In this document: positions 10,492 to 46,034 of the stretch, piece after piece | How positions within the stretch are numbered: position 1 is the stretch's first letter | How the letters are laid out: every line of letters starts with the position of its first letter | Assembly: GCA_039714075.1 (NCBI GenBank) | Contig: JBDLKA010000013.1 | Coordinates: 1-52,876 of the forward strand | Direction: 5' to 3' | DNA from: Candidatus Krumholzibacteriota bacterium | GTDB lineage: Bacteria > Krumholzibacteriota > Krumholzibacteriia > LZORAL124-64-63 | Length of the DNA stretch: 52,876 nt | The notes under the pieces: generated by a model | What the model was told of the DNA's origin: nothing | The model's database searches: none | Seen by the model: only the letters and a program-made list of their open reading frames with translations | Position numbers and translations under genes: made by a program

Positions 10492-11739
10492 TCAGGCGTT
10501 CATTGCGGCCAGGAACTGCTCGTTATCCTTGGTTTTACCCAATTTGTCGATGAGGAATTCCATGGCTTCGATGGGGTTGTAATCGCTCAGGTACTTGCGC
10601 AAAACCCATATCTTGGCCAGGTCCTTGCCCTCGATGAGCAGATCCTCCTTGCGCGTCCCCGATTTGAAGATGTCGATGGCGGGATAGACCCTGCGTTCGG
10701 CGATCTTGCGGTCCAGAACCAGCTCCATGTTGCCGGTGCCCTTGAACTCCTCGAAGATCACTTCGTCCATGCGGCTGCCGGTCTCGATCAGGGCCGTGGC
10801 GATGATGGTCAGCGAGCCGCCGTCCTCGATGTTCCGCGCCGCGCCGAAGAAACGCTTGGGCTTCTGCAGGGCGTTCGAGTCGACACCACCGGACAGGATC
10901 TTGCCCGAGTGCGGCACCACCGCGTTGTGGGCGCGCGCCAACCGCGTGATGGAATCCAGCAGGATCACCACGTCCATGCCGTTCTCGACCAGGCGCCGGG
11001 ATTTGGCCAGCACCATGTTCGCCACCTGCACGTGGCGTTCGGCGGGCTCGTCGAAGGTCGAGCTGACGACCTCGCCGTCCACCGACCGCGCCATGTCCGT
11101 CACTTCCTCCGGCCGCTCGTCGATCAGCAGGACGATCAGATGAACTTCGGGATGATTCGTGGTGATGGCGTTGGCGATCTTCTGCAGGATCATCGTCTTG
11201 CCCGCACGAGGCGGCGACACGATCAGGCCGCGCTGGCCCTTGCCGATGGGACTGAGCAGGTTGATCAGCCGGGTGGTCATGTTCTTGGCGCTGTGCTCGA
11301 GGTTGAGCATCTGCTCCGGATAAAGGGGAGTCAGGTTGTCGAAGAGGGTGACCTTCTTGGCGGTCTCGGGGTCGTTGTAGTTGACCGACTCCACCTTCAA
11401 CAGGGCGAAATAGCGTTCGTTGTCCTTGGGCGGACGCACCTGTCCGGAAATGGTGTCACCCGTCTTCAGGTCGAACTTCTTGATCTGGGAAGGGGACAGG
11501 TAGATGTCGTCGGGACCGGGCAGGTAGTTGAACTTCGCCGAGCGCAGGAAGCCGTATCCCTCGGCCAGGACCTGCAGCACGCCTTCGGCGTAGATCAGAC
11601 CGTTCTTTTCGGTCTGCCCCTCGAGAATCTTGAAGATGAGTTCGGATTTACGAAGGGTGCTGAGCGCCTCGATATTCATTCCGCGAGCGACTTCCACCAA
11701 CTCGTGGATGTTCATCTCCTGAAGTTCCTTGATGTCCAT
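10492..11739 (-). CDS. rho: Transcription termination factor Rho
   Basis: [56 protein letters not shown]; 415 aa with no N-terminal insertion. Confidence 0.98.
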
Positions 11740-17322: not shown

Positions 17323-17608
17323 TTTTTTACTTCCGTAATTTAAGCAGTTGCGAAACCGGGCGATTTTCAGGTCCGAAACTATTCCGTTCTCCAACAAATA
17401 TATAACTGTTTTTCCTCAGATGCAAAATCAGGCATGAAAACAAAAATCACCTCGAATTAGCCAATTTGTGGCAATAAAATGAATTTCAGGGTTGCCAAAC
17501 CCGGGTGGAGATCCCCATATTTACCCCGGCGGGAGAAGGAACGCCGGTGAGTTCGGCCCCTTGGAGGGAGGTTGGAAGCTCAGACAATTCACGGAGGATT
17601 TTGATATA

Positions 17609-19354
17609 ATGACAGGTAAAGCCCTTACAGCCCTTGGCTTTATTTTAGTTCTTTCTCAAACCTCTTTAATAGCCCACGCGGGCACTCTTTTGGTGCCCGG
17701 GGAATACGCCACCATCGGTGACGCGATGGAAATCTCCCAACCCGGCGACCGCATTGAAGTCTCCCCCGGGGTTTACCGGGAAAATAATCTGGTCATGACC
17801 GAGGGCGTCGTCCTTATCGGCATGGGAACCGGACCCGGGGACGTGGTCCTCGACGGGGGCGGCTCGGGGCGGATCATCCTCTGCGAAAGCATCATCCAAT
17901 CCAGTTATATCGAGAACCTAACTTTGGCCAACGGCCGGGCCTTCGGCGCCTCGAGCTACGACCAGAGCGGCGGCGCCCTGCTGTCCAGCAACAGCAGCCT
18001 GCGCATTTCGAAATGCATTTTCTCGGCCAACGAGGCCGAAAGCCACGGCGGCGCCATTCGCTGCAACAATTCCACGCTTCTGATCAACGACTGCCTGTTT
18101 ACCGGCAACAGCGCCCCCAACGGCGGCGGCGGGGCGGTTGATTGCAGCTACGGATCTTCTCCCCTGTTCCGGAATTGCGACTTCGAGAACAACAGCGCCT
18201 CCTGGGGCGGGGCCTTGTCCTGCCGCGCGGACTCGTCCCCCATGGTCGCCGACAGCCACTTCAAGAACAACACCGCCATGGGCGACCTGGGCTTCGGCGG
18301 GGCCGTGTTTTCCGATTTTCAAGCCACCCCCGTCTTCACCTATTCCACCTTCTCCGGGAATCAAGCCCTCTACGGCGGGGCGCTGGCCAGCTTCCAGGAC
18401 GCGGAAACAAACCTGGAAAACTGCACCGTCACCGGGAATTCGGCCGAATTCAGCGGCGGCGGCCTTTTTTGCCACGAATCGTCGCCGCGGGTGACCGGCT
18501 CCATCATCGCCTTCCAGGAAGGCACCGGCATCGCGGCCCAGGGAGGGGCCGTGCCCATGATTTCCTGCACCGATCTTTTCGGCAACAGCCAGGGAGATTG
18601 GGTGGGGAACATTTCCGATCAGGCCGGTGTCCAGGAAAACCTGTCCGCCGACCCCGTGTTCTGCTCCGAAAACCCCCTCACCGACAACGAGTTTTCCCTC
18701 CAGGACAATTCCCCCTGCGGACCCGAAGTGAATTCCTGCGGCGCCCTGGGCGCCTGGCCCGTCGGCTGTGACGCGGTCGCCGCCCGGGTGACCCTTTTCG
18801 AAGCCGACTGGAGCGGCAGGCACGCCCGGCTTTCCTGGCAGACCCTGTCCAACGGGGAAGCCCCCGTGTTCCGCCTGACCGGCGTCGTGGACGAGGAAGG
18901 CGCCAAGGAGTGGGAAATCCCCTACCAGGACGAGGGCGGCGGATTTTTCGCGGCGGAAGACCAGCAGTCCCGAACCGACAGCGGCAAGCAATACATCTTC
19001 CGCCTGTACCTGGTGGACAATCGTGGCGGGATGTCTCTGCTGGGTGAAACCAAGCTGGTGGCGGTGCCCGATTTTCCGGGTATCAGGGACTTGAAGGCCT
19101 CGCCCAATCCCTTCAACCCCTTGACTTCCATTTCCTTCAACCTCGGCAGTTCCCAGCGGACGCGGGTTTCCATCTATACCGTGGACGGACGCCGGGTCAG
19201 GACCCTGGCCAGCCGCGAGTTCGGCTCCGGGCCCCAGGAAATCAAGTGGGACGGCACCGACGAAAACGGCCGTCATTGCAGCACCGGCGCCTACATCGCC
19301 CTGGTGGAAGGCGAGCGTCAGATGAAAACCATCAAGCTGACCCTGATGAAGTAA
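17609..19354 (+). CDS. Secreted right-handed beta-helix protein with C-terminal FlgD-Ig/T9SS-like domain
   Basis: ATG 17609 behind GGAGG; VPGEYATI..A start; FxxN/GGA repeats; C-terminal PNPFNPLTSISF...WDGTDENG...KLTLMK. Confidence 0.85.
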   Translation: MTGKALTALGFILVLSQTSLIAHAGTLLVPGEYATIGDAMEISQPGDRIEVSPGVYRENNLVMTEGVVLIGMGTGPGDVVLDGGGSGRIILCESIIQSSYIENLTLANGRAFGASSYDQSGGALLSSNSSLRISKCIFSANEAESHGGAIRCNNSTLLINDCLFTGNSAPNGGGGAVDCSYGSSPLFRNCDFENNSASWGGALSCRADSSPMVADSHFKNNTAMGDLGFGGAVFSDFQATPVFTYSTFSGNQALYGGALASFQDAETNLENCTVTGNSAEFSGGGLFCHESSPRVTGSIIAFQEGTGIAAQGGAVPMISCTDLFGNSQGDWVGNISDQAGVQENLSADPVFCSENPLTDNEFSLQDNSPCGPEVNSCGALGAWPVGCDAVAARVTLFEADWSGRHARLSWQTLSNGEAPVFRLTGVVDEEGAKEWEIPYQDEGGGFFAAEDQQSRTDSGKQYIFRLYLVDNRGGMSLLGETKLVAVPDFPGIRDLKASPNPFNPLTSISFNLGSSQRTRVSIYTVDGRRVRTLASREFGSGPQEIKWDGTDENGRHCSTGAYIALVEGERQMKTIKLTLMK

Positions 19355-20470: not shown

Positions 20471-23095
20471 ATGCCAACGATCCAGACTTTCATTGTCACA
20501 CCGAACCTTCCGGAGCCCCTGAAGCCCCTGCTGGACATCGCCCGCAACGTCTGGTGGTCCTGGAACGTGGAAGCCATTTCCCTGCTGCGGCGGGTCGACC
20601 CCGACCTGTGGGACAAACACGAAGGCAACCCGGTGGCCGTCCTGGGTTCCCTGTCCGCCGAACGGGTCAGCGAACTGGAACGCGACAAGGCTTTCCTGGC
20701 CCATCTGGAAAGGGTGCGCAACGACCTGGACCGGTACCTCAACCTCGATTCCTGGTTCGAAGGCGAGCATGAAGACCTAAAAAGCGGCCTGATCGGTTAT
20801 TTCTCCCTGGAGTTCGGTCTCCATGAATCACTGCCCCTGTACTCGGGCGGCCTGGGCATCCTGGCCGGCGACCACCTGAAATCCGCCACCGACCTGGGCC
20901 TGCCCCTGGTGGGGATGGGCCTGGCCTACCAGTACGGTTATTTCCGCCAGTACCTCAACCATGACGGCTGGCAGATGGAAGAGTATTCGGTCAACGATTT
21001 CTACAACATGTCCATGTCCCTGGAAAAGGATCGTGAAGGGAGGGAACGCACCATCGAGGTCCACTACCCCGGGCGGGTGGTGAAGGCCCGGATCTGGCGC
21101 CTCCAGGTGGGGCGCAACCCCCTGTTCCTGCTGGACACGAACATCCCCGAAAACCGGCCCGAGGACCGCGAGCTGACCAGCCGCCTGTACAGCGGCGACA
21201 ACGACATGCGCATCCGGCAGGAAATCCTGCTGGGCATCGGCGGCCTGCGCGCGCTGATCGAGCTCGGTCTCGAGCCCACGGTCTGCCATCTGAACGAAGG
21301 GCACTCCGCATTCCTCGCCCTGGAACGCATCAACCTGCTGATGAAGAACAAGGGCCTGGATTTCGACACCGCCTTCGAGCTGGTGCGCGCCAGCAACGTG
21401 TTCACCACGCACACGCCGGTCCCGGCGGGCAACGATCATTTTCACCCCGACCTGGTCAGGACCTATCTGAAACGCAAGGTCGACGAACTGGGTATCGACA
21501 TGGAACGCCTGCTGGCCCTGGGTCGCCAGGACCCGGACAACAAGGCGGAAACCTTCTGCATGACCGTGCTGGCGCTGCGCCTGAGCCGCTTCGTCAACGG
21601 CGTCAGCGAACTCCATGGGCACGTGTCCCGCAAGATGTGGCAGCAGGTCTGGCCCGAAGCCCCGGCCGAAGAGATCCCCATCACCCACGTGACCAACGGC
21701 ATCCATACCCGCAGTTGGCTGTGCACGGAAATCGCCCGCCTCTACGACCGCTACCTGGGCCCCCGCTGGTACGAGGACCCCACCAACAAGACCCTCTGGG
21801 ACCGGGTGGACCACATCCCCGACGCCGAGCTGTGGCGCTCCCACGAGCGGATGCGGGAACGTCTGGTCGGGTTCGTGCGGCGACGCCTGCGCCGACAGCT
21901 GCGCAACCGCGGCGCCAACCGCGCCTGGATCAAGCAGGCCTCCGAAGTGCTGGATCCCGAAGCGTTGACCATCGGTTTCGCGCGCCGCTTCGCCACCTAC
22001 AAACGGGCCGCCCTGATCCTGAGCGATCCCGCCCGTCTGAGCCGGATCCTGAACAACCCGGACCGTCCGGTCCAACTCATCTTCGCGGGCAAGGCCCACC
22101 CCAAGGACCATCCGGGCAAGGAGTTGATCCGGCAGCTGATCCACCTGGCCGAGCGGGAGGAATTCCGCAAGCGCATCGTCTTTGTCGAGGACTACAACAT
22201 CGAGGTGGCCCGCTACCTGGTGCAGGGAGTGGACATCTGGCTGAACAATCCCCGCCGGCCCCTCGAAGCCAGCGGCACCAGCGGCATGAAGGTCCCCCCC
22301 AACGGGGGCATCAACCTGTCCGTGCTCGACGGCTGGTGGTGCGAAGGCTACCAGCAGGACAACGGCTGGGCCATCGGCGCCGGAGAGGACTACGAGGACC
22401 AGGCCTACCAGGACGACGTGGAAAGCACCGCCCTTTTGGACCTGCTCGAGAACGAGATCGTGCCCACGTTCTACGAACGCAGCAGCGACGACGTGCCCCG
22501 GGAATGGACGCGCATCATGAAGAATTCCATGCGGACGGTGAACGCCGAGTTCAACACCAACCGCATGGTCGAGGAATACACCGAGCGGTTCTACATCCCC
22601 TGCGTCGAAAATGCCGCGCGGTTGAGCGCCAACGACTATGCCCGGGCCAAGGAGCTTGCCGACTGGCGCCGCGGGATCAAGGCCGGGTGGGATAAACTGA
22701 GGATCATGCAGGTCGAAGCCCCGCCGCTTTCGGCCCAACCCATGGGGTCCAACCTGCCGGTCAAGGCGACCGTCCAGCTGGGCAACATCCCGGCGGACGA
22801 AGTGCTGGTCGAGGTTTACCACGGACTGCTGGATTCAGCGGGAGATATCGTCAACGGCGAAACGGCCACCCTGTTCCCCGGTGACATCGGAAATGACGGG
22901 ACCGCTGTCTACACCGGTGACATTCCCTGCCGCCGGGCCGGTCGCCGCGGTTTCACGTTGCGGGCGGTCCCCCGCAAGGAAGGCTACCCCCTGGACAGGT
23001 TCGAGACCGGCCTGGTCTCCTGGTGGGACGATCCCGCGGCCGGCGTGCACGAGGCGGGCGAAAACGCCCCGGGCGTCACCGTTCACCGCGCCTGA
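20471..23095 (+). CDS. glgP: Alpha-glucan (glycogen/maltodextrin) phosphorylase
   Basis: YSGGLGILAGD, HLNEGH, FARRFATYKR, FAGKAHP, EASGTSGMK (PLP lysine); RBS AGGAG. Confidence 0.96.
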   Translation: MPTIQTFIVTPNLPEPLKPLLDIARNVWWSWNVEAISLLRRVDPDLWDKHEGNPVAVLGSLSAERVSELERDKAFLAHLERVRNDLDRYLNLDSWFEGEHEDLKSGLIGYFSLEFGLHESLPLYSGGLGILAGDHLKSATDLGLPLVGMGLAYQYGYFRQYLNHDGWQMEEYSVNDFYNMSMSLEKDREGRERTIEVHYPGRVVKARIWRLQVGRNPLFLLDTNIPENRPEDRELTSRLYSGDNDMRIRQEILLGIGGLRALIELGLEPTVCHLNEGHSAFLALERINLLMKNKGLDFDTAFELVRASNVFTTHTPVPAGNDHFHPDLVRTYLKRKVDELGIDMERLLALGRQDPDNKAETFCMTVLALRLSRFVNGVSELHGHVSRKMWQQVWPEAPAEEIPITHVTNGIHTRSWLCTEIARLYDRYLGPRWYEDPTNKTLWDRVDHIPDAELWRSHERMRERLVGFVRRRLRRQLRNRGANRAWIKQASEVLDPEALTIGFARRFATYKRAALILSDPARLSRILNNPDRPVQLIFAGKAHPKDHPGKELIRQLIHLAEREEFRKRIVFVEDYNIEVARYLVQGVDIWLNNPRRPLEASGTSGMKVPPNGGINLSVLDGWWCEGYQQDNGWAIGAGEDYEDQAYQDDVESTALLDLLENEIVPTFYERSSDDVPREWTRIMKNSMRTVNAEFNTNRMVEEYTERFYIPCVENAARLSANDYARAKELADWRRGIKAGWDKLRIMQVEAPPLSAQPMGSNLPVKATVQLGNIPADEVLVEVYHGLLDSAGDIVNGETATLFPGDIGNDGTAVYTGDIPCRRAGRRGFTLRAVPRKEGYPLDRFETGLVSWWDDPAAGVHEAGENAPGVTVHRA

Positions 23096-24300
23096 TAGCT
23101 GGGCCGATTGCCCCCGTAGGAACCGGCCCGGCTCAACATTTCCGCCATGACTTCCCACTCCGTGGTAGCCGTCCCGGCCGTATTCGCGGCCATGGACCCG
23201 GACCGGTTTTCGGCCTGGACCAGGGCTCTGTAGGACGAATAATTCCCATCCAGTTCGCTGCGCAGCCGGGCTGCCTCTTCGGTCCGTCCCAGTTCCTCGC
23301 ACAATTCCATGGCCCGAATCGCATACTGGGAAGGCGCAGGGTCGAGCCGGTGGGCGCCCTGGGCCAGTTTCAGGGGAATGAGCCGGAATCCGTTTTCCTG
23401 CAGAACGACGCTGCCGCCGTCCATGTGCACGGCCATGGTGGAGGGATCCCAGACCACGAGCATCCCCAGGAGGGTGCACAACAAGGCTGCCGAGTACCAG
23501 TCTCCGCGCATCCGGTGCCGAATGCCCGGCTCGCCCATCATCTGACGGGCGCCTTCGAGCGCCTGGGCGATCCAGCCGATCACACCTGCCAGCAGGATTC
23601 CGGCGGCCAGCATGAATATGATTTCCATGGTCATCGGATTCATTGATCCCGGCCCCGCCGCCTGGTTGCTGGCCCAGATTCCCGGGCCTCCGGCCAGAAT
23701 CATCGCCGCACCGACGATCACCCAGCCCGTCCAGATCACCGCGGCGCCCCGCTTGGCACATCCCGCCATGAGGAGGCCCAGCCCGGGGGCGACCAGTCCG
23801 GTCACGCCCACGGCCCAGGACTTGCGAAAAATCGAGGGCAACCGGTACTGGGGTTGCCGCTCTCCCTGAACGACCAGTTGCGCGGCACGAGCCCAGATGG
23901 AGGAGGCGGTCACCATGACGACGGCCCCAGTCAGAGCCCAGGGCCACAGGGGCCAACCATTGGCGATCAGGTCTAGGATGAGGCCGCGCCCGGCGAACAA
24001 CCCCAGTCCGGCCATGCCGCTGATCAGGCCGGCGAACATCAGACCCTTGCTCCTCCGGTTTCCGGGGTTCAGATGGACGGAAAACGGCCCCAGCAGATAA
24101 GTGAGAAGAATCAGGGGAGCAAATTGCAATTCGCCGCGGGGCGCTTTGCTTTCCCTGGTTGTCCTGGGCTTGGCGGCTTTTTTGGGCGACTTTGCCTTGG
24201 GTGCACCGGCCGCAGTAGTGGCTCGTGGTTCCCTCTGGGGGTTCGTCGGTCCGAGATCTTCCCCCAATTCGATCGAATAAATTTTTTCGTTGTCATACAT
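23083..24300 (-). CDS. Multi-pass membrane protein with short C-terminal TPR-like segment, function unknown
   Basis: 405 aa; K/P/A-rich N-terminus, several hydrophobic segments, C-terminal AMELCEELGRTEEA; RBS GAGGA; 13-bp convergent overlap with glgP. Confidence 0.65.
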   Translation of the reverse strand: MYDNEKIYSIELGEDLGPTNPQREPRATTAAGAPKAKSPKKAAKPRTTRESKAPRGELQFAPLILLTYLLGPFSVHLNPGNRRSKGLMFAGLISGMAGLGLFAGRGLILDLIANGWPLWPWALTGAVVMVTASSIWARAAQLVVQGERQPQYRLPSIFRKSWAVGVTGLVAPGLGLLMAGCAKRGAAVIWTGWVIVGAAMILAGGPGIWASNQAAGPGSMNPMTMEIIFMLAAGILLAGVIGWIAQALEGARQMMGEPGIRHRMRGDWYSAALLCTLLGMLVVWDPSTMAVHMDGGSVVLQENGFRLIPLKLAQGAHRLDPAPSQYAIRAMELCEELGRTEEAARLRSELDGNYSSYRALVQAENRSGSMAANTAGTATTEWEVMAEMLSRAGSYGGNRPSYQAR

Positions 24301-24392
24301 GGCTATGTCCTCAGGGTCTTAAATTGCATGTTTCAGCTGTGTTTTTTCATCCCAAGCTGTTCCATCGCCATATCTTGCAATTAGTATTCCTG

Positions 24393-24749
24393 TTATTTCG
24401 ACGGACCCAGACCGGGAACGATTCCCTGCAGATCCGCCACGTATTGCTTGAAGAGTTTTCTACCGGCGGGCGTGACCCGGACCAGGGTCCGGGGTTTTTT
24501 GCCTTCGAAGGTTTTTTCGATGCTGACGACCCCTCCCTCCTCCAGCTTGCTCAGGTGCACCGAGAGGGTGCCGTCGGTCAGACCGAGGCCGTCGCGCAGG
24601 GCGGTAAAGAGGTGGGCTTTCCTGGTGCGCAGCAAAAAGGACAGGATCAGCAATCTGACCCTGCCGTGAATCAGTGGCGATAAGGGAGCCCGGGTCCGGT
24701 TGCCCGGAGACCCAGGATCGGGATTGCCCGAATGTTCGGTACCCGCCAC
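24393..24749 (-). CDS. Winged-helix transcriptional regulator (HTH_34 / ArsR-MarR-like)
   Basis: LIHGRVRLLILSFL..FTALRDGLGLTDGTLSVHLSKLEEGG.V...KTFEGKKPRT....T.AGR; GTG start behind AAGGAG. Confidence 0.88.
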   Translation of the reverse strand: MAGTEHSGNPDPGSPGNRTRAPLSPLIHGRVRLLILSFLLRTRKAHLFTALRDGLGLTDGTLSVHLSKLEEGGVVSIEKTFEGKKPRTLVRVTPAGRKLFKQYVADLQGIVPGLGPSK

Positions 24750-25227
24750 GACTTCCGGCCTCCTTGCCGGGCGTCATCGCCTCCACTGCGTCCCTCGGCC
24801 ACATCCTTGTGGCCACACGGTGCGAAGTGGCTTCGCTGTGCAGGGACCGGTCGTCCCGGGTTCGAACCCTGAAGTCCCGGTCCCTGTGTCTCAGGAAAGG
24901 CCGCCCTGCCTTTCCTGAAGCGGGTCTGTCTAATGGCCGTGGCCTCCGCCCGCCAGTCGAACTCCCTCGAATCCTTTCGAGTGAAGTTGGCTGACGAGGG
25001 GGCGGCTGGCACCCAGGACCAGTGATCCGCCCCCCGTTTGCCGTTCGGAGATCCTTCTCCGGCCCCATGCGGGGGTCCTTGGCCTAAGCCAATGCTCCGT
25101 CGGGACCCGGCGAAACCATTTCGACAAACCAAACCCGGAATACCAATAATCCCCTCCGGGTCGTTTTTGCGGTGGTCCTTCGTCGCCGGAAATCCTTTCC
25201 GGCCAGGAGGTCCAATGACCAGCCGCA
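24750..25227 (-). ncRNA. Candidate CsrB/Rsm-like structured RNA or long structured 5' leader with multiple AAGGA-loop hairpins
   Basis: About ten consecutive GC-rich stems read by eye; AAGGA(U/G)-loop hairpins at 25185-25203, 25046-25061, 24966-24981, 24797-24814 and 24755-24770; promoter directly upstream; no convincing protein. Confidence 0.65.
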
Positions 25228-25249
25228 GTACTTTAATATTCCAAGTACT
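25227..25249. promoter_or_regulatory. Palindromic operator overlapping the -10 element
   Basis: AGTACTT-taatattcc-AAGTACT inverted repeat. Confidence 0.6.
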
Positions 25250-25261
25250 TTTAAATTTCAA
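25233..25261 (-). promoter_or_regulatory. Sigma70 promoter driving the structured RNA and wHTH gene
   Basis: TTGAAA (25261-25256), 17 bp, TATTAA (25238-25233); predicted +1 near 25226, at the first base pairs of the first RNA stem. Confidence 0.7.
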
Positions 25262-25457
25262 GTAGAAAAAACAATTATTTCAAAGTTTTTTTACGGTTGG
25301 ATAAATGGTCTCGCGGATGGGCAAATTAACTGTCGCAAACGGGGCTTCAGGGCTGGACTTGGAGTCCGGCGGAGTTATCTTGGTCCGGACAGATTCAAGC
25401 GGGCGAACCCTCCCGCAGAACCACCAGTAAGCGAAGAAACCCACGAAGGAGGTTGCC

Positions 25458-26654
25458 ATGAAGGCGGATAAGCTCATCAGGATCGAGGACCAGTACGGGG
25501 CCGACAATTACCATCCCCTGGACATTGTCATCAAGAAGGCCGAAGGAGTCTGGGTCGAAGACGTCGAGGGCAACCGGTTCATGGACTTCCTGGCCGCCTA
25601 CAGCGCCGTGAACCAGGGCCACTGCCATCCCCGGCTGCTGAAGGCCCTGCGCCGCCAGGCCGCCAAGGTCACCCTGACCAGCCGCGCCTTCCGCAACGAC
25701 CAGCTGCCGTTCTTCTGCCAGGAAGTCTGCGAGCTGACCGGTTACGAGAAGGTTCTGCCCATGAATTCGGGCGCCGAGGCCGTCGAGACCGCCATCAAGG
25801 CCGCGCGCAAGTGGGGCGAGAAGATCAAGGGCATCAGGAAGAACAAGGCCGAGATCATCGTCTGCGCCGACAACTTCCACGGACGCACCACGACCATCGT
25901 CGGTTTTTCCACCGAGGCCCAGTACCAGGACGGTTTCGGGCCCTTCACCCCCGGGTTCAAGATCATCCCCTTCGGTGACGCCAAAGCTCTCGAGAAGGCC
26001 ATCAACAAGAACACGGCGGCCTTCATGGTCGAGCCCGTGCAGGGCGAAGCCGGCATCAACGTGCCGCCCAAGGGATTCTTGAAGAAGGCCGCGGCGCTGT
26101 GCAAGAAGAACAACGTGCTGTTCATCGCCGACGAGATCCAGTCGGGTCTGGGCCGCACCGGCAAGATGTTCGCCTTCGAGCACGAAGGCGTGCGGCCGGA
26201 CGGCGTGATCATCGGTAAGGCTTTGAGCGGCGGGTTCTACCCCGTGTCGGCCTTCCTGTCGAACGAGAAAGTCATGAGCGTCTTCAAACCGGGCGACCAC
26301 GGTTCGACCTTCGGCGGCAACCCGCTGGGCATGGCCGTCGCGCGCGAGGCCCTCAAGGTGCTGACCGAGGAAAAACTGGTCCAGAACAGCGCCAAGCTGG
26401 GTCCCTGGTTCATGGGCGAACTCAAGGCCATGAAGTACAAGAGCATCAAGAAGGTGCGCGGCCAGGGGCTGTTCATCGGGCTGGTGCTCGATCGTCCGGC
26501 GCGGCCCTACTGCGAGGCTTTGATGGCCGAGGGGATGCTGTGCAAGGAGACCCACGAGAACGTGATCCGGTTCGCGCCGCCGCTGACGGTTTCGAAGAAG
26601 GAACTGAACATGGCGTTGCGGAAGATCAACAAGGTGTTCAAGATGCTGGGTTGA
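25458..26654 (+). CDS. rocD: Ornithine--oxo-acid aminotransferase
   Basis: YGADNYHPL, DFLAAYSAVNQGHCHP, LTSRAF, PMNSGAEAVETAIK, DEIQSGLGRTG, GKALSGG, HGSTFGGNPL; RBS AAGGAGG. Confidence 0.95.
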   Translation: MKADKLIRIEDQYGADNYHPLDIVIKKAEGVWVEDVEGNRFMDFLAAYSAVNQGHCHPRLLKALRRQAAKVTLTSRAFRNDQLPFFCQEVCELTGYEKVLPMNSGAEAVETAIKAARKWGEKIKGIRKNKAEIIVCADNFHGRTTTIVGFSTEAQYQDGFGPFTPGFKIIPFGDAKALEKAINKNTAAFMVEPVQGEAGINVPPKGFLKKAAALCKKNNVLFIADEIQSGLGRTGKMFAFEHEGVRPDGVIIGKALSGGFYPVSAFLSNEKVMSVFKPGDHGSTFGGNPLGMAVAREALKVLTEEKLVQNSAKLGPWFMGELKAMKYKSIKKVRGQGLFIGLVLDRPARPYCEALMAEGMLCKETHENVIRFAPPLTVSKKELNMALRKINKVFKMLG

Positions 26655-26925: not shown

Positions 26926-29352
26926 ATGGGCATACTGGCACCAGGCGGTCAACGCTGGCCCCGATTCGCCAGGAGTACTTCCCACTGGTTGCACATCGCC
27001 TTCGCGATTACGGCCCTCGGATTGTACATCCTGGGCGGGATGGCCCATTCCAAGGTGTCGGGACTGCCACCGGATTTCCAGCTGGATCAACTCACTTACC
27101 CCCTTGCGGTCGGACAATACACGGTCAACAGCGAGCCCGAACTTCTCGCCCGGGTCGCCGGTGAACCCGTCGGGTCTCCCCTATTGCTGCGCAGCACCGA
27201 TAGCGCCACCAACGTCATGGTCATCACCCAGAAACTCTATACATCCTTCCACGATGTAATCATCATGATCAATGGCCTATTCTTCCTGGCGGTCTCCCTG
27301 ATCGTGTTTGCGCCCAGGATTGAGAAGGTCCCCGCCCGCGACCTTTTCTGGGCCTGTTTACTTTATGGCCTGGCCATCATGATCGGCGACATCCACCAGC
27401 CCCAGGGCGAGGTGTGGCCCGGAGCCCTGGTGCCGCTGACCCGCATCGTGGCCCTGGTGTTTCTGCCGACCTTGATGCTCCACGTGGGGCTGAGTTTTCC
27501 ACCACGGACCTCCATCTTCGACCGCTTACCGTGGTTTGTGCCTACCGTCATGATCATCGGATTTGCCGTGGCGGGATGGCAGTTCTGGGCCTGGGCGCAG
27601 TGGTTCGAGGGTGTGGGCGACTGGGGCACAATCGACATCCCACGCCGTGCCGGTGCCCTTTATCTGGCCCTTTTTGTCGGTTCGGGCTACGTGGGCATGA
27701 TCTACGGCTACCAACACTCGGAACAGGAACGCCAGCGCGAACAGGCGAAATGGCTGCTCTGGGGAATCTCCATGGGTTCGGTGCCGTTTGTTTTCCTGCA
27801 CGCCCTTCCTTTGGCGCTCGGCCACACCCCGCTTCTTCCCATCGAGATCACGCGTCTGTTCTCGATCGTGATCCCCATCTCCATGAGTTTCGTGGTGATC
27901 CGCCACAGATTTCTCGACGTCGACATCATCATCCGGCGCAGTCTGCTATATGTGCTTCTGGCCAGCATGATGGTGGGGATCTACGCGGTGATCGGGATCT
28001 TAATCGGCCACCGGGTCGAGGAGCGGTGGCCTGAAACCGGTCCCTTTGTTCCGATCGTGGCCACCATTGTCGCCGCCACACTGTTTACCCCGACGCGATT
28101 GGGGTTCGCCCAGATGATCGACCGGGTCTTTTTCAAGATCCGTTACAATCATGCCCAGGCTCTCGACGTGTTCAGGGGAGAACTCCGGGGATCCGAAAAC
28201 CAACAGCAGATAGTCGACAGCCTCGCCGCGTTTCTCGTCAATCATTTGGGACCAGATGTTAGCTCCGTGGTTCTGCATCACGAAGACCAGCATTTCCGTG
28301 CCGGCAAGGAGATGAATGACGCCCCCCCCAGTCCATTGTTTCCGAACGGCGTACTGATCATGGCGCTGCCGGGCAGCACGGCCCGTCCAGGTATCGAAAC
28401 TGACGGATTTCCTGCACATTGGAGGGATGAAAACTTTGTCCTGGCACATTCGATCGAGGCGGATGGCAATCATTTTGGTCATCTGACAATAGGGGAAAAA
28501 AGCACCAGACGCAGCTATGTGGCTGAAGACCTCGATCTGCTGGCCGCCGCCTCACGGGAGGCCGCCATATGTGTGCATCGCATGAACCTGAAACAGGATT
28601 TTGTCGATGAGGTCGTCGCCCGACACCAGGTAGAAGAAATGAACCGGTTCCGTACCCAATTCTTTGCGCAATTCGCACATGATTTGCGCAGTCCGCTGAC
28701 CTCGATCAACTGGGCGGCGCAAAATCTGCTGGACGGCGTGGTGGGGGAAGTCAGCCCCCCTCAGGTGACCTACCTGCAGGGCATCGAAACCTCGGCTCGC
28801 CAACTCGTGCGCCTGGTCAACAACCTGCTCGAGGCCACGCGGCTTGAGTCCGGAATGCCGGAAATCGAATTCTCCGAGGTGGATCTTTCAGTAACGGTGA
28901 AGGAGTCGGTCTCGAAACTAAGGGTCACCGCCGAGACCAAGAACATCATGCTGGAGATCCAGTCCCCGGAGGTTACAACGGTTTTCGGAAACGAGGAAAA
29001 ACTTCTCGAAGTGATCGACAACCTGATCGAAAACGCGATCCGTTACGCCCCGCCGGAAACCCGGATCGATATCACAATCTCCACGACAGGGAATCAAACA
29101 CGGTTTGTAGTCGAGGACCGGGGGCCGGGACTCGATCCGCTGGACCTGGATGCCATCTTCGAGCCCTATCGTCAAGGTGCGGCGAGCCCCCATTCCACCC
29201 AGCAGGGATTCGGCCTCGGACTCTTTGTCGTCAGGAGCTGGGTGGAGCGGATGGGCGGCGAAGTCCAGGCCGACAACCGCGAAGGCGGCGGCGCCATTTT
29301 CACTATTGATCTCCCCACCAGGGAAACGGATGAACCCCAGGAGACCTCATGA
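26926..29352 (+). CDS. Multi-TM sensor histidine kinase
   Basis: Many TM segments, GAF-like region, H-box FAHDLRSPLT, NLIENAIRY, DRGPG, GFGLGL. Confidence 0.92.
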   Translation: MGILAPGGQRWPRFARSTSHWLHIAFAITALGLYILGGMAHSKVSGLPPDFQLDQLTYPLAVGQYTVNSEPELLARVAGEPVGSPLLLRSTDSATNVMVITQKLYTSFHDVIIMINGLFFLAVSLIVFAPRIEKVPARDLFWACLLYGLAIMIGDIHQPQGEVWPGALVPLTRIVALVFLPTLMLHVGLSFPPRTSIFDRLPWFVPTVMIIGFAVAGWQFWAWAQWFEGVGDWGTIDIPRRAGALYLALFVGSGYVGMIYGYQHSEQERQREQAKWLLWGISMGSVPFVFLHALPLALGHTPLLPIEITRLFSIVIPISMSFVVIRHRFLDVDIIIRRSLLYVLLASMMVGIYAVIGILIGHRVEERWPETGPFVPIVATIVAATLFTPTRLGFAQMIDRVFFKIRYNHAQALDVFRGELRGSENQQQIVDSLAAFLVNHLGPDVSSVVLHHEDQHFRAGKEMNDAPPSPLFPNGVLIMALPGSTARPGIETDGFPAHWRDENFVLAHSIEADGNHFGHLTIGEKSTRRSYVAEDLDLLAAASREAAICVHRMNLKQDFVDEVVARHQVEEMNRFRTQFFAQFAHDLRSPLTSINWAAQNLLDGVVGEVSPPQVTYLQGIETSARQLVRLVNNLLEATRLESGMPEIEFSEVDLSVTVKESVSKLRVTAETKNIMLEIQSPEVTTVFGNEEKLLEVIDNLIENAIRYAPPETRIDITISTTGNQTRFVVEDRGPGLDPLDLDAIFEPYRQGAASPHSTQQGFGLGLFVVRSWVERMGGEVQADNREGGGAIFTIDLPTRETDEPQETS

Positions 29353-30737
29353 CCAGCCTGAATGCCCGCATCCTTATCGTCGACGACGAACCTATGCTGC
29401 GCCGTACTATGAGTGACCGCATGAAGTTCTGGGACTGCACCACCGAGGAGGCTTCGTCGGGCGAAGAAGCCCTCGAAATGCTCGGCCGGAAGTCCTACGA
29501 CCTGGTTCTTTTGGACATCAAAATGCCGGGAATCAGTGGGCTTGAGGTCCTGGCGGCAATGAGGGAGCGCAACGACATGACCGACGTCGTGGTTCTGACC
29601 GCCCACGCCTCGGTCGAGGCCGCCGTCGAAGCGATCCAGAACGGGGCGATTGATTTCCTCCTGAAACCCGCGGATTTCGAGTTGGTGAAAAATACCGTCA
29701 GTCGGGTGCTGAAATCCCGCCGCCTGGCCAGGGCCCACGACGCCTTGCGCGAGCAATACTCACTGAACGAACCTTTCGTGATCGGGGATTCCCCGGCCAT
29801 GAAGGCCTTGGTCGATGGCGCGGGGCGGGCTGCCCAGAGCAAGGCCACGATCCTCCTTCGCGGTGAGAGTGGATCGGGAAAGGGCGTGATCGCCGAATTC
29901 GTACACCGGGAAAGCAGTCGGAGCAAGGGCCCCTTCGTTTATGTGAACTGTGTCGCCCTCAGCGACGAATTGATCGAAAGTACCCTGTTCGGACATGAGC
30001 GAGGCGCTTTTACCGGCGCGGTGGCGCGTAAGACCGGGAGATTCGAAGCGGCGAATTCCGGAACCGCCTTCCTCGACGAGATCGGAGACATTTCGCCCCG
30101 TCTTCAGGCGAAGCTCCTGCATTTCCTCGAGACCGGGGAATTCGAACGCGTGGGTGGCACCCGCACCCTGTCCGTCGACTGCCGGATCGTCGCGGCGACA
30201 AACCGCGATCTCGAAGCGGCGGTCCGCGACGGCGGCTTCCGTGAGGACCTTCTCTACCGACTGAACGTGATCGGCCTGGAAGTGCCCCCACTCCGGGAAC
30301 GGGGCAAGGATATCTCGGCCCTCGCCGAATTCTTCCTCGCGCGTTTCGCTTCCGAACTCAAACGGCCGAATCTGAAGATCGCCCCGGAAACCCACGCCAT
30401 CATGCTCGCCTATTGCTGGCCCGGCAATGTGCGGCAAATGAAAAACGCCATGGAAAGAATGGTCGTGATGGCCCCTGGCAACGTGCTGACCCCGGATCTG
30501 CTGCCACCTGAGGTGTTTCGCGGAGAAGATCCCGCGGCTCCGCCGATATTCGACAATGACGGTCTGTTGCCCTTGCGCGAGGCCGAACTGGCCTTTCGGA
30601 AGCAGCACCTTCGTCGCGCCCTGGCCATGACCGACGGCAACCAGACCAAGGCCGCGGAGCTACTCGGAATCCAGCGCAGTTCGCTGAATCGTCAGATGAA
30701 AGAACTCTGCCTGCGGAATGAGGAGCCCGCGGACTGA
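29349..30737 (+). CDS. Sigma54-dependent response regulator (NtrC/AtoC family)
   Basis: REC (ILIVDDE, DIKMP), GESGSGK, GAFTGA, FLDEIG, FREDLLYRL, WPGNVRQ, C-terminal Fis-type HTH; ATGA overlap with the kinase. Confidence 0.95.
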   Translation: MTSLNARILIVDDEPMLRRTMSDRMKFWDCTTEEASSGEEALEMLGRKSYDLVLLDIKMPGISGLEVLAAMRERNDMTDVVVLTAHASVEAAVEAIQNGAIDFLLKPADFELVKNTVSRVLKSRRLARAHDALREQYSLNEPFVIGDSPAMKALVDGAGRAAQSKATILLRGESGSGKGVIAEFVHRESSRSKGPFVYVNCVALSDELIESTLFGHERGAFTGAVARKTGRFEAANSGTAFLDEIGDISPRLQAKLLHFLETGEFERVGGTRTLSVDCRIVAATNRDLEAAVRDGGFREDLLYRLNVIGLEVPPLRERGKDISALAEFFLARFASELKRPNLKIAPETHAIMLAYCWPGNVRQMKNAMERMVVMAPGNVLTPDLLPPEVFRGEDPAAPPIFDNDGLLPLREAELAFRKQHLRRALAMTDGNQTKAAELLGIQRSSLNRQMKELCLRNEEPAD

Positions 30738-43548: not shown

Positions 43549-43863
43549 TCAGCTGAAACCCAAAGCGAATCGCACCGCCGGTCCGACTTCAGCCATTTTT
43601 TCGGCCGACAAGGTCGTAATTATCGAACCGATCCTTCCCTTGGACACCGTTTGCAGGTGATCGCAATTGACCGCACAATCCGTGGGTACGCCATCCAATT
43701 CCGTCAAAACCACTTCCGTCGGAATGGAGCGGATGGTTCTGGTCACCGGAGCAATAGTCACTTCGTTGAGGTACTCGATGATGGTATCCCTGGTCAAAAT
43801 CAACACGGGCCGCTTTTTATCCGGTTGTTGAAATCTGTACCAGCGAATTTCGCCTCGTATCAT
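43549..43863 (-). CDS. Type II toxin, PemK/MazF family endoribonuclease
   Basis: MIRGEIRW..PDKKRPVLILT..VTIAPVT..PTEV..NCDHLQTVSK. Confidence 0.92.
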   Translation of the reverse strand: MIRGEIRWYRFQQPDKKRPVLILTRDTIIEYLNEVTIAPVTRTIRSIPTEVVLTELDGVPTDCAVNCDHLQTVSKGRIGSIITTLSAEKMAEVGPAVRFALGFS

Positions 43864-44187: not shown

Positions 44188-44312
44188 CAGGGATTACAGG
44201 CCAAACACAAATTCAGAGGCACAACCAGACAAGAAAATTAGGTGGAAATGGGTGCACGGAATATAGTATAGTTTTTTGATAGGATATATTCATCAAATAA
44301 GGGGAGTTGATT

Positions 44313-46034
44313 GTGACCACGCATAAGACATTTTGTTTAGTCATCGGAATCGCCATCACCGTTCTCTTCGCCCCCACAGCAATGGCCGCCTGGCCCACCG
44401 GTGAAACGACCATCGCCACCAACACCAGCCAGTATCTGCAGGCGGGCGTCATTGATGATGAAACCGGAGGCGCCATCCTCACCTGGTTCAGCTCCAACAT
44501 CCTTATGGCCCAGCGCTTTGCTCCCGACGGGACCATGCTTTGGACTGCGGGAGGGGCCGACGTGGGCGACCTCACCAACGCCTGGCTGTACGGCAGATCA
44601 GTGGTCGCCGACGGGAGCGGCGGATTCATCTACGCCTTTCGGCGGGACAACGACATCTACGCCCAGCATGTGGACAGCACCGGCGCTGCCGACTGGGATC
44701 ATTTGGGGTACGGGTTCCCCAATCCCGTGCCGGTGTGCACCAATCCCGCCAATCAGTATCACCAGAGTATGGACACCGACGGCGCCGGGGGCGTCATCAT
44801 CGCCTGGACGGACTACCGTGACGGCAACATGATCATCCATGCCCAGCATATCGATGCGACCGGCACGCCGCAGTGGACCCTGGACGGGGTTCCCCTCGGC
44901 ACGACGGCACTCAGCCACATCTATCCCCTTGTTCTTGCCGACGGTTACGGCGGGGCGTTCGTCTCCTGTAATGCCTATGTCTCCGGGGGATGGTCGTACG
45001 TCTATTGCCAGCATGTCGATGCGACGGGCACCACCACGTGGGGTCCGGACGGCATCCAGGTTTCCGAGACCCATGCCGGTTCCATTCCGACCGCCACTAA
45101 CGATCACAACTGGAATCTGCTGAGCGACGGGGCCGGTGGCATCCTCTCGACCTGGCGGCACACCCCCTACACGAATCAGGTTTCCATCCAGGCGAGTCGT
45201 CTCACCGCGGCCGGCGCCAGGGTCTGGGCCGACTCGGTCGTGGCCCTGACGCCCGCGTTGCCGAGTGAGATAATCGCGGGCTCGACCACGTCCGCGGCAA
45301 CCGGGGACGGAGGCCTGGTCTCGGGCTGGTCCGAGCCGCGGAACTTCGCCGTGTCCGGTTACGATCTCTTCATCAACCGCCTGGACGGCGCCGGGAATCT
45401 GGTGTGGTCCGCCTCGACGGCCGGAATCCCCCTCTGCACCGAGACCAACAACCAGAACACCCTGGCCCTGTCCGTGGACCCCGCGGGCGTGACTTGGGCG
45501 ACGTGGAAGGACGGTCGTTCCGGTAGCTGGCAACTCTACAGTCAGCATATCGACGCCGGCGGCACGGCTCTGGGCGCGGTGGACGGCGATGCGTTCGACC
45601 TGAATCGCGATCCTGTCACCAGCGGCCCCGTCCAGGTTTCCGGCGGGGTGTTCGTGGCCTATTCCGACAAGCGTAACCCGGCTCCCGACATCACCACCAA
45701 CCTCTACGCCAAGGTTCTTGGGGGCCCGGTTTCCGCCGTGGGGCCGGTCTTTGCCTCGGACCTGACCTTGTCTCCCAACTGGCCCAATCCCTTCAGTTCC
45801 GAGACCAGGATCGGCTATGCCACCGGTCGGCCGGGTTTCATCGACCTGTCGGTCTACGATTTAAGGGGGCGCCGGGTCCGAACCCTGTTCGGCGATGCGG
45901 TCGATTCCGGGGACCACGTTGCCAGGTGGGACGGCCGGGACAGGCAGGGCAATCCCTTGGCGGCCGGGGTGTACTTCGTGCGGTTGCGGTCCGGCGGCGA
46001 GATTGTTTCGCGGCGCATGACGCTTCTTCGCTGA
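44313..46034 (+). CDS. Secreted repeat (probable beta-propeller) protein with C-terminal FlgD-Ig/T9SS-like domain
   Basis: Signal peptide (AMA); repeats DG.GG.II.W.D.R...IYAQHVD..G...W; C-terminal PNPFS..T.I...YDLRGRRVRTL...WDGRD..G..LAAGVYFVRL; GTG 44313 behind GGGGAG (track start 44307). Confidence 0.82.
   Translation: MTTHKTFCLVIGIAITVLFAPTAMAAWPTGETTIATNTSQYLQAGVIDDETGGAILTWFSSNILMAQRFAPDGTMLWTAGGADVGDLTNAWLYGRSVVADGSGGFIYAFRRDNDIYAQHVDSTGAADWDHLGYGFPNPVPVCTNPANQYHQSMDTDGAGGVIIAWTDYRDGNMIIHAQHIDATGTPQWTLDGVPLGTTALSHIYPLVLADGYGGAFVSCNAYVSGGWSYVYCQHVDATGTTTWGPDGIQVSETHAGSIPTATNDHNWNLLSDGAGGILSTWRHTPYTNQVSIQASRLTAAGARVWADSVVALTPALPSEIIAGSTTSAATGDGGLVSGWSEPRNFAVSGYDLFINRLDGAGNLVWSASTAGIPLCTETNNQNTLALSVDPAGVTWATWKDGRSGSWQLYSQHIDAGGTALGAVDGDAFDLNRDPVTSGPVQVSGGVFVAYSDKRNPAPDITTNLYAKVLGGPVSAVGPVFASDLTLSPNWPNPFSSETRIGYATGRPGFIDLSVYDLRGRRVRTLFGDAVDSGDHVARWDGRDRQGNPLAAGVYFVRLRSGGEIVSRRMTLLR

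Follow-up and report, generated by a model that had tools for sequence, protein, structure and literature searches.

A conserved structured leader with candidate CsrA sites precedes a putatively autorepressed winged-helix regulator gene in Krumholzibacteriia

A cassette of promoter, long structured leader and regulator gene was located on a contig of a Candidatus Krumholzibacteriota bacterium. The whole stretch of 52,876 nucleotides was analysed and is called the window here; all cassette coordinates refer to its minus strand (Table 1). The most likely explanation, to which we assign a rough probability of 0.42, is that a CsrA-type protein controls the leader of a dimeric winged-helix (wHTH) regulator, which in turn represses its own promoter. 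Such wiring would form a negative feedback, strong or weak. As parts of the same joint explanation, and at the same probability, the cassette would be a conserved one-transcript unit of Krumholzibacteriia-type bacteria, with a predicted transcript, and the regulator is modelled as a small dimeric PadR/HTH_34-type winged-helix protein. The sequence features listed in an earlier note on this DNA (promoter, palindrome, leader, Shine-Dalgarno loop and HTH_34 gene) are real, and most of them are conserved.

Table 1. Features of the cassette in the window
Feature	Position	Strand	Remarks
-35-like hexamer TTGAAA	25256..25261	-	T-rich tract before; CTTGAmA kept in 62/63 loci
-10-like hexamer TATTAA	25233..25238	-	17 nt after the -35; TATTAA or TTATAA conserved
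Inverted repeat AGTACTT-N9-AAGTACT, candidate operator	25227..25249	-	Conserved core (T)ACTT-N9-AAGT(A)
5' leader RNA, about 477 nt	24750..25226	-	Ends predicted
GGA hairpin 1, CCGGAAAGGATTTCCGG	25186..25202	-	Stem covaries (columns 32-34 with 41-43, 21-leader alignment)
Core domain, four helices	25040..25111	-	72 nt; compensatory changes
G-rich stem with invariant 15-nt loop CUGGUCCUGGGUGCC	24998..25035	-	Stem changes compensated
GGA hairpin CTCGAAAGGATTCGAG	24966..24981	-	Pair 293:300 AU in 11, CG in 10 sequences; pair 289:306 four pair types
Two conserved hairpins without GGA loop	24892-24917; 24841-24886 (tip variable)	-	Alignment helices 368-394 and 401-449
Hairpin GGCCACAAGGATGTGGCC carrying ACAAGGAUGU	24797..24814	-	Pair 505:523 AU in 13, GC in 8 sequences
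Shine-Dalgarno hairpin CCGGC-AAGGAG-GCCGG	24755..24770	-	Shine-Dalgarno AAGGAGG at 24765-24759
118-aa wHTH regulator gene (HTH_34), GTG start	24393..24749	-	Pfam PF13601

Results

Occurrence of the cassette

The cassette was present in all of 63 related loci, mostly from Krumholzibacteriia MAGs; these loci were collected via the wHTH protein, so the co-occurrence of the gene with leader and operator is no independent test. Its usual neighbours are a divergent ornithine aminotransferase gene on one side (59/63 loci) and a convergent glucan phosphorylase gene on the other (44/63). In close relatives, conservation runs unbroken from the promoter to the Shine-Dalgarno hairpin and the start codon. 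The leader had been expected to precede orthologous wHTH genes as well; its core domain was found in 63/63 loci and the promoter motif in 62/63, the remaining locus being without upstream DNA. Full-text literature searches (Krumholzibacteri, CsrA, sRNA/riboswitch, sponge/autorepression/homeostasis and flagella) returned no description of the RNA or of the circuit. GGA hairpins at the start of the neighbouring aminotransferase gene were also considered and rejected by eye; an ordinary Shine-Dalgarno sequence and a separate TATCTT-like -10 lie there.

Structure and conservation of the leader

The leader measures about 477 nt in the window and 234-534 nt among 55 loci and the window. Its predicted fold has a z-score of -5.04, and none of 100 shuffled sequences was as stable. 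An nhmmer profile of the leader matched 62 of the 63 loci, and RNAalifold on 21 leaders yielded 93 pairs, 38 of which showed compensatory change. The window and 20 of the 63 loci were searched with Rfam 15, which gave no match at the gathering score; at E <= 10, positions 24200-25500 gave eight weak matches, all to other families, with no Csr/Rsm family among them. By comparative sequence analysis, the leader is a well-defined RNA family beyond Rfam, apparently phylum-wide.

Within the core domain lie the GGA hairpin CGGAGAAGGATCTCCG (25046-25061) and GACGGAGC, an invariant stretch that stays single-stranded. In the core alignment (59 sequences), 11 of the 16 pairs showed compensatory change. 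The cells were paired in 97.9% of cases, versus 90.4% in shuffles (0 of 500 reached the observed value) and at most 58.9% in slid controls. The covariance model of the core (R1) scored 91.1 bits in the window; one strong match each (46.3-91.1 bits) was obtained in the window and 62 loci, and the match in the locus L050 was truncated at its 5' end (26.8 bits). With R1, no second copy of the RNA was found in the window or the loci, all other matches being at most 20 bits.

The 15-nt loop CUGGUCCUGGGUGCC was found in 40/63 loci (at most two mismatches). A search of the window for its complement as a possible target returned only the locus itself and matches with 2-3 mismatches inside coding DNA. 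Pairing of this loop with the core helix was rejected by eye; the helix changes from GGGUCC to GGAUCC and the loop stays constant. Large conserved domains of the leader, with several helices and the invariant 15-nt loop, have no GGA loops.

The earlier note had stated that no U-tailed terminator separates the RNA from the gene, and the scan of the minus strand from 25226 to 24749 for terminator-like sites was indeed empty; such a site lies inside the ORF at 24665-24640. It had also raised a separate proximal promoter as a point against the circuit; no second promoter-like site was seen in the leader. The leader was also considered as coding (a 196-aa ORF, 24671-25261). This was rejected because single-base indels separate close relatives along this ORF.

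GGA hairpins and the CsrA consensus

The raw GGA count of the leader is unexceptional (23 in 480 nt; up to 26 are reached elsewhere on this strand). Hairpins of at least 5 bp with AGGA in their loop number five in 24727-25226, the maximum of either strand; the background on the minus strand is 0.31 per 500 nt (mean; sd 0.66). Six GGA-loop hairpins are contained in the MFE fold of the window leader. The MFE folds of 56 leaders contain 269 such hairpins, versus 78.8 in dinucleotide shuffles. Each leader carries 2-7 of them (mean 4.8) in the CsrA-preferred context CANGGAUG, and their stems covary. Counted by one script, GGA-loop hairpins per 100 nt amount to 1.2 in the window leader, 2.4 in E. 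coli CsrB and 0.4 in the pgaA leader; the shortest leaders of relatives (L032) reach 2.1.

The CsrA consensus obtained by SELEX is given in the available text of PMC7652899 as RUACARGGAUGU, with the GGA in a hairpin loop. According to this consensus, ACAAGGAUGU of the hairpin at 24797-24814 is identical to the consensus core. The frequency of the consensus word CANGGANG is 6.29/kb across 55 leaders and 0.35/kb in the remaining sequence of the loci, an 18-fold difference; for ACARGGAUGU, the 21 kb of leaders yielded 17 occurrences and 568 kb elsewhere yielded one. The leader is seen to carry hairpins that match the recognition consensus of CsrA, a global RNA-binding regulator; these hairpins are candidate binding sites.

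The last hairpin of the leader presents the Shine-Dalgarno sequence. AAGGAG (24765-24760), 10 nt before the GTG at 24749, forms the loop of CCGGC/GCCGG, as had been described; the motif GGC-A[AG]GGAG-GCC is found in 63/63 loci. The stem has three invariant GC pairs, and past these it is paired in only about half of the distinct sequences (27 of the 48 distinct rows form the fourth pair, as CG in 17, GC in 5, AU in 4 and GU in 1). The invariant AAGGAGG could equally be kept for ribosome binding alone. The GGA of the hairpin at 24797-24814 sits 43 nt upstream of the GGA of the Shine-Dalgarno sequence; among 56 leaders, the median distance from the latter to the nearest upstream hairpin GGA is 52.5 nt. 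Of 57 start codons, 52 are GTG.

A tblastn search of the window and the 63 loci with E. coli CsrA gave no match at E <= 10, and Pfam scans of 43 larger ORFs found no csrA in the window. CsrA homologs have been reported in Krumholzibacteriota, and in the available text of that survey a predictor based on B. subtilis rates most of them as non-functional (PMC13443453).

Promoter and candidate operator

The hexamers of the proposed TTGAAA-17-TATTAA promoter and their 17-nt spacer were located at 25261-25233, and the motif is kept in 62/63 loci. They match the consensus in 5/6 (-35) and 4/6 (-10) positions. A sigma-70 scan of the minus strand (23000-25600) called no promoter, TTGAAA-17-TATTAA included, because its rule demands T as the last base of the -10, where TATTAA has A. 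The +1 near 25226 is only predicted. It had been placed at the 5' end of the first stem; this stem, the first of the MFE fold, lacks conservation.

The arms AGTACTT (25249-25243) and AAGTACT (25233-25227) form a perfect 7-bp repeat that spans the -10. Among 63 sequences (62 loci and the window), the inner three base pairs are complementary in all 63, the fourth in 54, the fifth in 41 and the outer two in 19 and 20; all seven positions pair in just four sequences. The mean is 5.13 of 7 paired positions, versus 1.1-2.4 when the arms are slid. The palindrome claimed earlier stands in the window as a perfect repeat, whereas in relatives conservation is confined to the innermost 4-5 bp per arm. Bases in the spacer and after the -10 with which RNA polymerase can dispense are conserved and mutually complementary.

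With at most one mismatch, AAAGTACTT gave 121 matches at these promoters versus 10 matches, near chance, elsewhere in 351,540 bp of loci. No further operator copies were found in the window beyond the promoter, and the motif is essentially restricted to the cassette promoter. Upstream of the -35, a T-rich tract is the only conserved element. It is solely from the absence of another conserved upstream element that a circuit without BarA/UvrY input, as proposed in the earlier note, might be suggested.

The regulator

The regulator matches Pfam PF13601 (HTH_34) over residues 31-111 with 82.5 bits (E 2.4e-23), far above the cut-off of 27, and the HTH_34-type identity proposed earlier is borne out. 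A total of 293 homologs was obtained, with an alignment that covers the N-terminus from the start. The AF2 model has a pLDDT of 83. Its best Foldseek match is 1ub9 (E 1.1e-5, TM 0.69/0.81), and small wHTH proteins of the PadR/MarR/HxlR type (PDB 1ub9, 4ejo and 5zi8) come nearest in fold. The N-terminus is a disordered Gly/Pro-rich extension of about 22 residues, with pLDDT below 50 at residues 1-9 and 13-17.

The homodimer model scored 0.47, and the best of three controls scored 0.19. Among proteins with solved structures, 20 of 30 one-chain pairs and 1 of 23 single chains reached the mark for a homodimer, counts that hold only roughly here since our own alignment was fed to the model. At least 87% of the contacts are shared between runs, with a partner pLDDT of at least 88, and the predicted contacts involve the N-terminal segment and the C-terminal helix; as similar complexes have already been solved, the pass may reflect memory. 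The recognition helix (TDGTLSVHLSKL region) and the promoter repeat are both nearly invariant.

Discussion

Proposed mechanism

In the proposed mechanism, a CsrA-family dimer would bridge the consensus hairpin (24797-24814) and the Shine-Dalgarno hairpin 43 nt downstream. The bridging dimer would block ribosome access, and little regulator would be made. The regulator dimer would bind (T)ACTT-N9-AAGT(A) astride the -10 and repress its own promoter. More free CsrA would then lead to less repressor, more leader and more bound CsrA; since one RNA comprises both leader and repressor, the result would be negative feedback on free CsrA. From these sequence patterns we infer a homeostat of the kind drawn in the earlier note. 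The CsrA-consensus hairpins, the Shine-Dalgarno motif in 63/63 loci and the complementary promoter bases are consistent with it, whereas the GGA density, half that of CsrB, and the domains without GGA speak against a pure sponge. An extended version of this idea is unlikely: throughout a class of uncultured bacteria, the CsrA antagonist RNA might be the 5' leader of its own repressor's mRNA instead of a free sRNA governed by a two-component system, sensing free CsrA at its Shine-Dalgarno hairpin, setting its own synthesis via the repressor and buffering CsrA, with the non-GGA domains (four-helix core and 15-nt loop) adding a second input.

Alternative explanations

The leader may instead be a cis-acting, multi-site CsrA-repressed 5' UTR, like those of glgC, pgaA and hag, in front of an autoregulated transcription factor that acts downstream of CsrA and whose main job is the control of other genes. 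The RNA would then be too scarce to titrate CsrA, and there would be no homeostat. We regard this as somewhat unlikely. A high-affinity upstream hairpin and a Shine-Dalgarno site 43 nt apart are the classic repression layout, the GGA-loop density is half that of CsrB, and transcription factors are commonly CsrA targets according to the available text of PMC7652899. However, the near-consensus -35 and spacing with the T-rich tract, set against a weak and partly buried GTG, fit an RNA made in excess of protein, and short leaders reach a CsrB-like density (L032, 2.1 per 100 nt). Moreover, no operator copy was seen near the neighbouring genes, though a 5-bp arm is hard to find. Quite improbable, in our view, is a structured leader that is bound by something other than CsrA: another RNA-binding protein, the 30S subunit (via Shine-Dalgarno-like AAGGA loops) or a riboswitch-like ligand tied to the neighbouring ornithine aminotransferase and glucan phosphorylase genes. 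The GGA loops would be part of that other architecture, and AAGGA is also the Shine-Dalgarno core. The covarying four-helix core with its invariant GACGGAGC, the invariant 15-nt loop on a covarying G-rich stem (40/63 loci), the conserved synteny (aminotransferase 59/63, phosphorylase 44/63) and the lack of a csrA in the window and the 63 loci would suit such a leader. Against it, the loops fit the CsrA consensus past the GGA (CA..GGA.G; ACARGGAUGU 17 in 21 kb versus 1 in 568 kb), and no Rfam riboswitch or other family was matched. The short stems with loops of 4-6 nt also resemble the SELEX ligands described in the available text of PMC7652899.

It is very unlikely that the promoter repeat is something other than a wHTH operator, such as the site of another regulator, a lineage-specific promoter element, or a site from which the wHTH protein activates. 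The conserved arms of 4-5 bp would be compatible with this, as would the atypical -10 in a phylum whose promoter rules are undefined. In addition, the left element AAAGTACTT can pair with itself, and AAAGTA also forms a direct repeat at a distance of 17 nt, so that several readings fit. Yet the repeat overlaps the -10 and the +1, a position typical of repressors; the product of the adjacent gene has a fold shared by small dimeric regulators, and its dimer model passes the controls; and the recognition helix (TDGTLSVHLSKL region) is nearly invariant together with the repeat. Two separate genes are hardly to be expected, with the GGA RNA as a free-standing sRNA that is terminated or processed before the ORF and a regulator expressed on its own. 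Terminators of GC-rich organisms can be without U-tails, a Rho gene lies in the window (10492-11739), and in the nearest relatives a hairpin with a T-run just inside the ORF (24633-24665) could end an RNA of about 590 nt. Just 9 of 57 sequences have that T-run, however, and neither a terminator-like site between leader and start nor a promoter-like site in the leader was seen. The unbroken conservation from promoter through Shine-Dalgarno hairpin to start codon in close relatives also argues for the preferred reading, a single transcript of leader and regulator.

Comparison with known systems

The leader resembles CsrB/CsrC and RsmX/Y/Z in having multiple GGA motifs in short hairpin loops in the CANGGAUG context, which are candidates for binding several CsrA dimers. 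Unlike those RNAs, it matches no Rfam family, has no terminator of its own, is fused to a protein-coding gene and contains extra conserved domains without GGA. Its GGA-loop density is half that of CsrB, and no conserved upstream activator box was seen among the conserved positions inspected at the cassette. The leaders of E. coli glgC and pgaA and of B. subtilis hag share with it a GGA over the Shine-Dalgarno sequence and a stronger upstream hairpin within bridging distance, a distance that is reportedly that of Mercante and colleagues in 2009 for the CsrA dimer. The cassette leader is far longer than these (234-534 nt), and it combines deep conservation with a core of several covarying helices; its gene encodes a transcription factor, and its promoter has a conserved inverted repeat.

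Two systems without a Csr sRNA or a two-component system are also related to the proposal. In the available text of PMC4894983, the flaA mRNA of Campylobacter jejuni is both a CsrA-repressed target and a CsrA titrator in a system without Csr sRNAs; the proposed leader would likewise be a repressed mRNA that can titrate CsrA. In contrast, flaA encodes flagellin and the main antagonist described there is FliW, whereas the cassette product would feed back on the transcription of its own RNA. The Hag-FliW-CsrA partner-switch homeostat of B. subtilis is a closed negative loop around CsrA with no two-component system, as described in the available text of PMC7652899, and a loop of that type is proposed for the cassette. 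That homeostat has a protein as antagonist and controls the amount of flagellin; the cassette loop would consist of RNA and a transcriptional repressor.

The wHTH protein has the architecture of small PadR/HxlR/MarR-like regulators, with H-H-H, a beta-wing and a C-terminal helix, and a dimer is predicted. Such regulators often autorepress via short inverted repeats. The protein differs from them by its disordered N-terminal extension of about 22 residues.

To our knowledge, the control of CsrA activity beyond Gammaproteobacteria is mostly obscure, and the answers so far are FliW and one mRNA case. A loop that works as drawn would make the cassette a minimal homeostat, built from an RNA and a repressor, for a global regulator. 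If the loop fails, the leader would still be a new structured class whose non-GGA domains need a partner. The leaders are also candidate natural ligands for the CsrAs of Krumholzibacteriota, which were surveyed as mostly non-functional in a heterologous predictor in the available text of PMC13443453. The locus offers an RNA family outside Rfam with textbook CsrA-type sites, and the wiring is simple and can be rebuilt in E. coli.

Conservation of the cassette and its neighbours

The sequence features are real, and the cassette (Table) is a conserved unit. One search of genome contigs with the wHTH protein gave 63 related loci, mostly from Krumholzibacteriia MAGs. A profile built from the upstream sequence in the window matches 62 of the 63 loci; the exception is L050, a locus cut at its 5' end, with only 304 nt of upstream DNA. 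The synteny check of palindrome, RNA and wHTH gene that the earlier note had called for came out positive: the promoter motif is found in 62/63 loci, and the 72-nt core domain of the leader is strong in 62 loci.

The upstream neighbour is a divergent ornithine aminotransferase gene (59/63 loci), and the downstream neighbour is a convergent alpha-glucan phosphorylase gene (44/63). The order aminotransferase, cassette, phosphorylase spans 20471-26654 of the window. The proximity of a CsrA-type RNA to a gene for glycogen breakdown is suggestive; the start of the aminotransferase gene showed no GGA hairpin. A predicted membrane protein of 405 aa (23083-24300, minus strand) lies 92 nt past the stop codon of the wHTH gene, and the minus strand between them has no terminator-like site. 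It has no Pfam or NCBIfam match, and its gene is limited to the six closest of the 63 loci. The record titles of L011, L016, L023, L039, L054 and other loci disagree on taxonomy (Fibrobacteraceae, Gemmatimonas sp., Kiritimatiellae, Latescibacterota, Krumholzibacteriia) despite the common cassette and synteny; these conflicting labels are probably unreliable.

Features of the cassette in the window (all coordinates on the minus strand)
Feature	Coordinates	Basis or remark
-35-like TTGAAA	25261-25256	sequence
-10-like TATTAA	25238-25233	17 nt after TTGAAA
Inverted repeat AGTACTT / AAGTACT	25249-25243 / 25233-25227	sequence; perfect, spans the -10
Leader RNA, ~477 nt	between predicted +1 and GTG 24749	predicted start
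Core domain, 72 nt	25040-25111	alignment of 59 sequences
G-rich stem with invariant 15-nt loop CUGGUCCUGGGUGCC	24998-25035	40/63 loci, compensated stem changes
Consensus hairpin, one in the window	24797-24814	GGA lies 43 nt before that of the SD
SD stem CCGGC/GCCGG, AAGGAG as loop	24770-24755	sequence
SD AAGGAG	24765-24760	10 nt before GTG 24749
wHTH gene, 118-aa ORF, GTG start	24393-24749	Pfam HTH_34

Leader RNA

The leaders are 234-534 nt long (median 370.5; 55 loci and the window). The window leader folds with z = -5.04 and is more stable than 100/100 shuffles. The scan of the minus strand found no terminator-like site from the predicted +1 to the ORF, in agreement with the earlier note. 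RNAalifold analysis of 21 full-length leaders predicted 93 pairs, 38 of which have compensatory changes; this pair set covers all GGA hairpins of the window leader. The core contains 16 pairs, with compensatory change in 11 across 59 sequences. Its cells are paired at 97.9%, compared with 90.4% in shuffles (0/500 reach the observed value) and at most 58.9% for slid partners. With the core covariance model, the window and 62 loci each had a single strong match (46.3-91.1 bits), and four of these loci lay outside the training set; L050 scored 26.8 bits, and all remaining hits were at or below 20 bits. No Rfam family matched in the window or in the 20 loci scanned.

Several conserved parts carry no GGA loop: the G-rich stem, for whose CUGGUCCUGGGUGCC loop a search of the window gave no complementary target, two more conserved hairpins without a GGA loop, and an invariant single-stranded GACGGAGC inside the core. 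A 196-aa ORF overlapping the leader was rejected as coding, on single-base indels between close relatives.

GGA hairpins as candidate CsrA sites

The plain GGA count of the leader is unexceptional (23 per 480 nt, compared with a maximum of 26 in other parts of the strand). AGGA in the loops of hairpins of at least 5 bp occurs five times in 24727-25226, the maximum on either strand of the 52.9-kb window; the minus-strand background is 0.31 per 500 nt (sd 0.66). In MFE folds, 56 leaders have a total of 269 GGA-loop hairpins, whereas dinucleotide shuffles give 78.8. The density of CANGGANG is 6.29/kb in 55 leaders and 0.35/kb in the remaining locus DNA (both strands). The word ACARGGAUGU was counted 17 times in 21 kb of leaders and once in 568 kb; it forms the core of the SELEX CsrA consensus RUACARGGAUGU, whose GGA sits in a hairpin loop (PMC7652899).

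With the same script applied to each RNA, the window leader has 1.2 GGA-loop hairpins per 100 nt, whereas E. coli CsrB has 2.4 and the pgaA leader 0.4; the shortest relatives reach 2.1. The pgaA leader in this comparison was taken as 234 nt long. A second local cluster, four AGGA loops in hairpins of at least 5 bp (29427-29976, minus strand), lies antisense to a sigma-54 response-regulator gene (29349-30737) and is probably due to chance.

The Shine-Dalgarno (SD) had been described as the loop of the last hairpin, and the window sequence agrees. GGC-A[AG]GGAG-GCC precedes the start codon in 63/63 loci. Three GC pairs of the stem are invariant, and thus compensatory change cannot test them. Of 48 distinct rows, 27 form the fourth pair, using four pair types, and 24 form the fifth; pair conservation thus gives the predicted stem moderate support. 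GTG serves as the start codon in 52/57 cases.

Promoter and inverted repeat

The hexamers and spacing of TTGAAA-17-TATTAA are as claimed (25261-25233), and CTTGAmA-N-AAAGTACTT-N-TATTAAAGTA is present in 62/63 loci. The sigma-70 scan of the window did not list this site because TATTAA has no terminal T, so it is called a candidate promoter by resemblance and conservation. Near-invariant bases also lie within the spacer and immediately past the -10; these are mutually complementary and dispensable for RNA polymerase.

Among 63 sequences (62 loci and the window), the arms of the repeat pair at the inner three positions in 63/63, at the fourth in 54, at the fifth in 41, and at the outer two in 19 and 20. 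On average 5.13 of 7 positions pair, compared with 1.1-2.4 in slid controls. The 7-bp palindrome of the earlier note is perfect in the window but has full arms in only 4/63 sequences, and what is conserved is the unit (T)ACTT-N9-AAGT(A). Alternative readings are possible, since the left element can pair with itself and AAAGTA is also present as a direct repeat. Allowing at most one mismatch, AAAGTACTT matches 121 times at cassette promoters and 10 times elsewhere (351,540 bp); no second occurrence was found in the window.

The wHTH protein

The assignment as an HTH_34-type regulator is well founded (82.5 bits, cut-off 27). From 317 candidates, 293 homologs were found at E <= 0.001, and those with names are Candidatus Krumholzibacteria. 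In an alignment of 31 proteins, the N-terminus aligns from the start codon onward. The AF2 model (pLDDT 83) has about 22 disordered N-terminal residues, three helices, a beta-wing and a C-terminal helix; the closest solved folds are small PadR/MarR/HxlR-type regulators, with 1ub9 first.

The homodimer model scored 0.47, compared with 0.19 for the best of three controls. The mark was reached by 20/30 solved same-chain pairs and 1/23 solved single chains, counts that apply only roughly as the model was built from our own alignment. The runs share at least 87% of contacts, with partner pLDDT at least 88. Like complexes are already solved, and the pass may therefore reflect structures memorised by the model. 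The modelled interface would involve the invariant PLIHGR segment and the C-terminal helix.

Inside the ORF, a terminator-like site (24633-24665, minus strand) consists of an 11-bp hairpin followed by CTTTTTG. The hairpin uses AGG/AGA arginine codons, unusual for a 61% GC genome. It is retained in close and some intermediate relatives, with the T-run in only 9/57 sequences, and could end an RNA of ~590 nt in the nearest clade.

Proposed mechanism

The most likely mechanism combines CsrA-type translational repression with wHTH autorepression, both bindings being putative. A CsrA-type protein would block translation at the SD hairpin, aided by the upstream consensus hairpin, and the wHTH dimer would repress its own promoter at the inverted repeat. 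Given both steps, the feedback loop proposed in the earlier note would follow from the wiring. Neither the window nor the 63 loci yielded a csrA gene. PMC13443453 counts Krumholzibacteriota among the phyla with CsrA homologs, and its prediction is that few of these would function in a B. subtilis assay.

CsrA-repressed leaders, the dual-function flaA mRNA (PMC4894983) and the Hag-FliW-CsrA loop are known precedents related to this idea. The earlier note knew of no described system with this layout; full-text literature searches likewise found no description of the leader RNA or circuit.

Other genes in the window

A MazF/PemK-like toxin ORF lies at 43549-43863 (minus strand; Pfam E 9.1e-18). 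A SelB-type selenocysteine elongation factor gene lies at 1040-2953 (minus strand), so some TGA codons are probably decoded as selenocysteine in this organism. Three large proteins (17492-19354, 44307-46034 and 50379-51929, plus strand) have a FlgD_ig-like domain at the C-terminal end, and two also contain beta-helix or PMP repeats; all three presumably resemble secreted or surface proteins of FCB-group bacteria.
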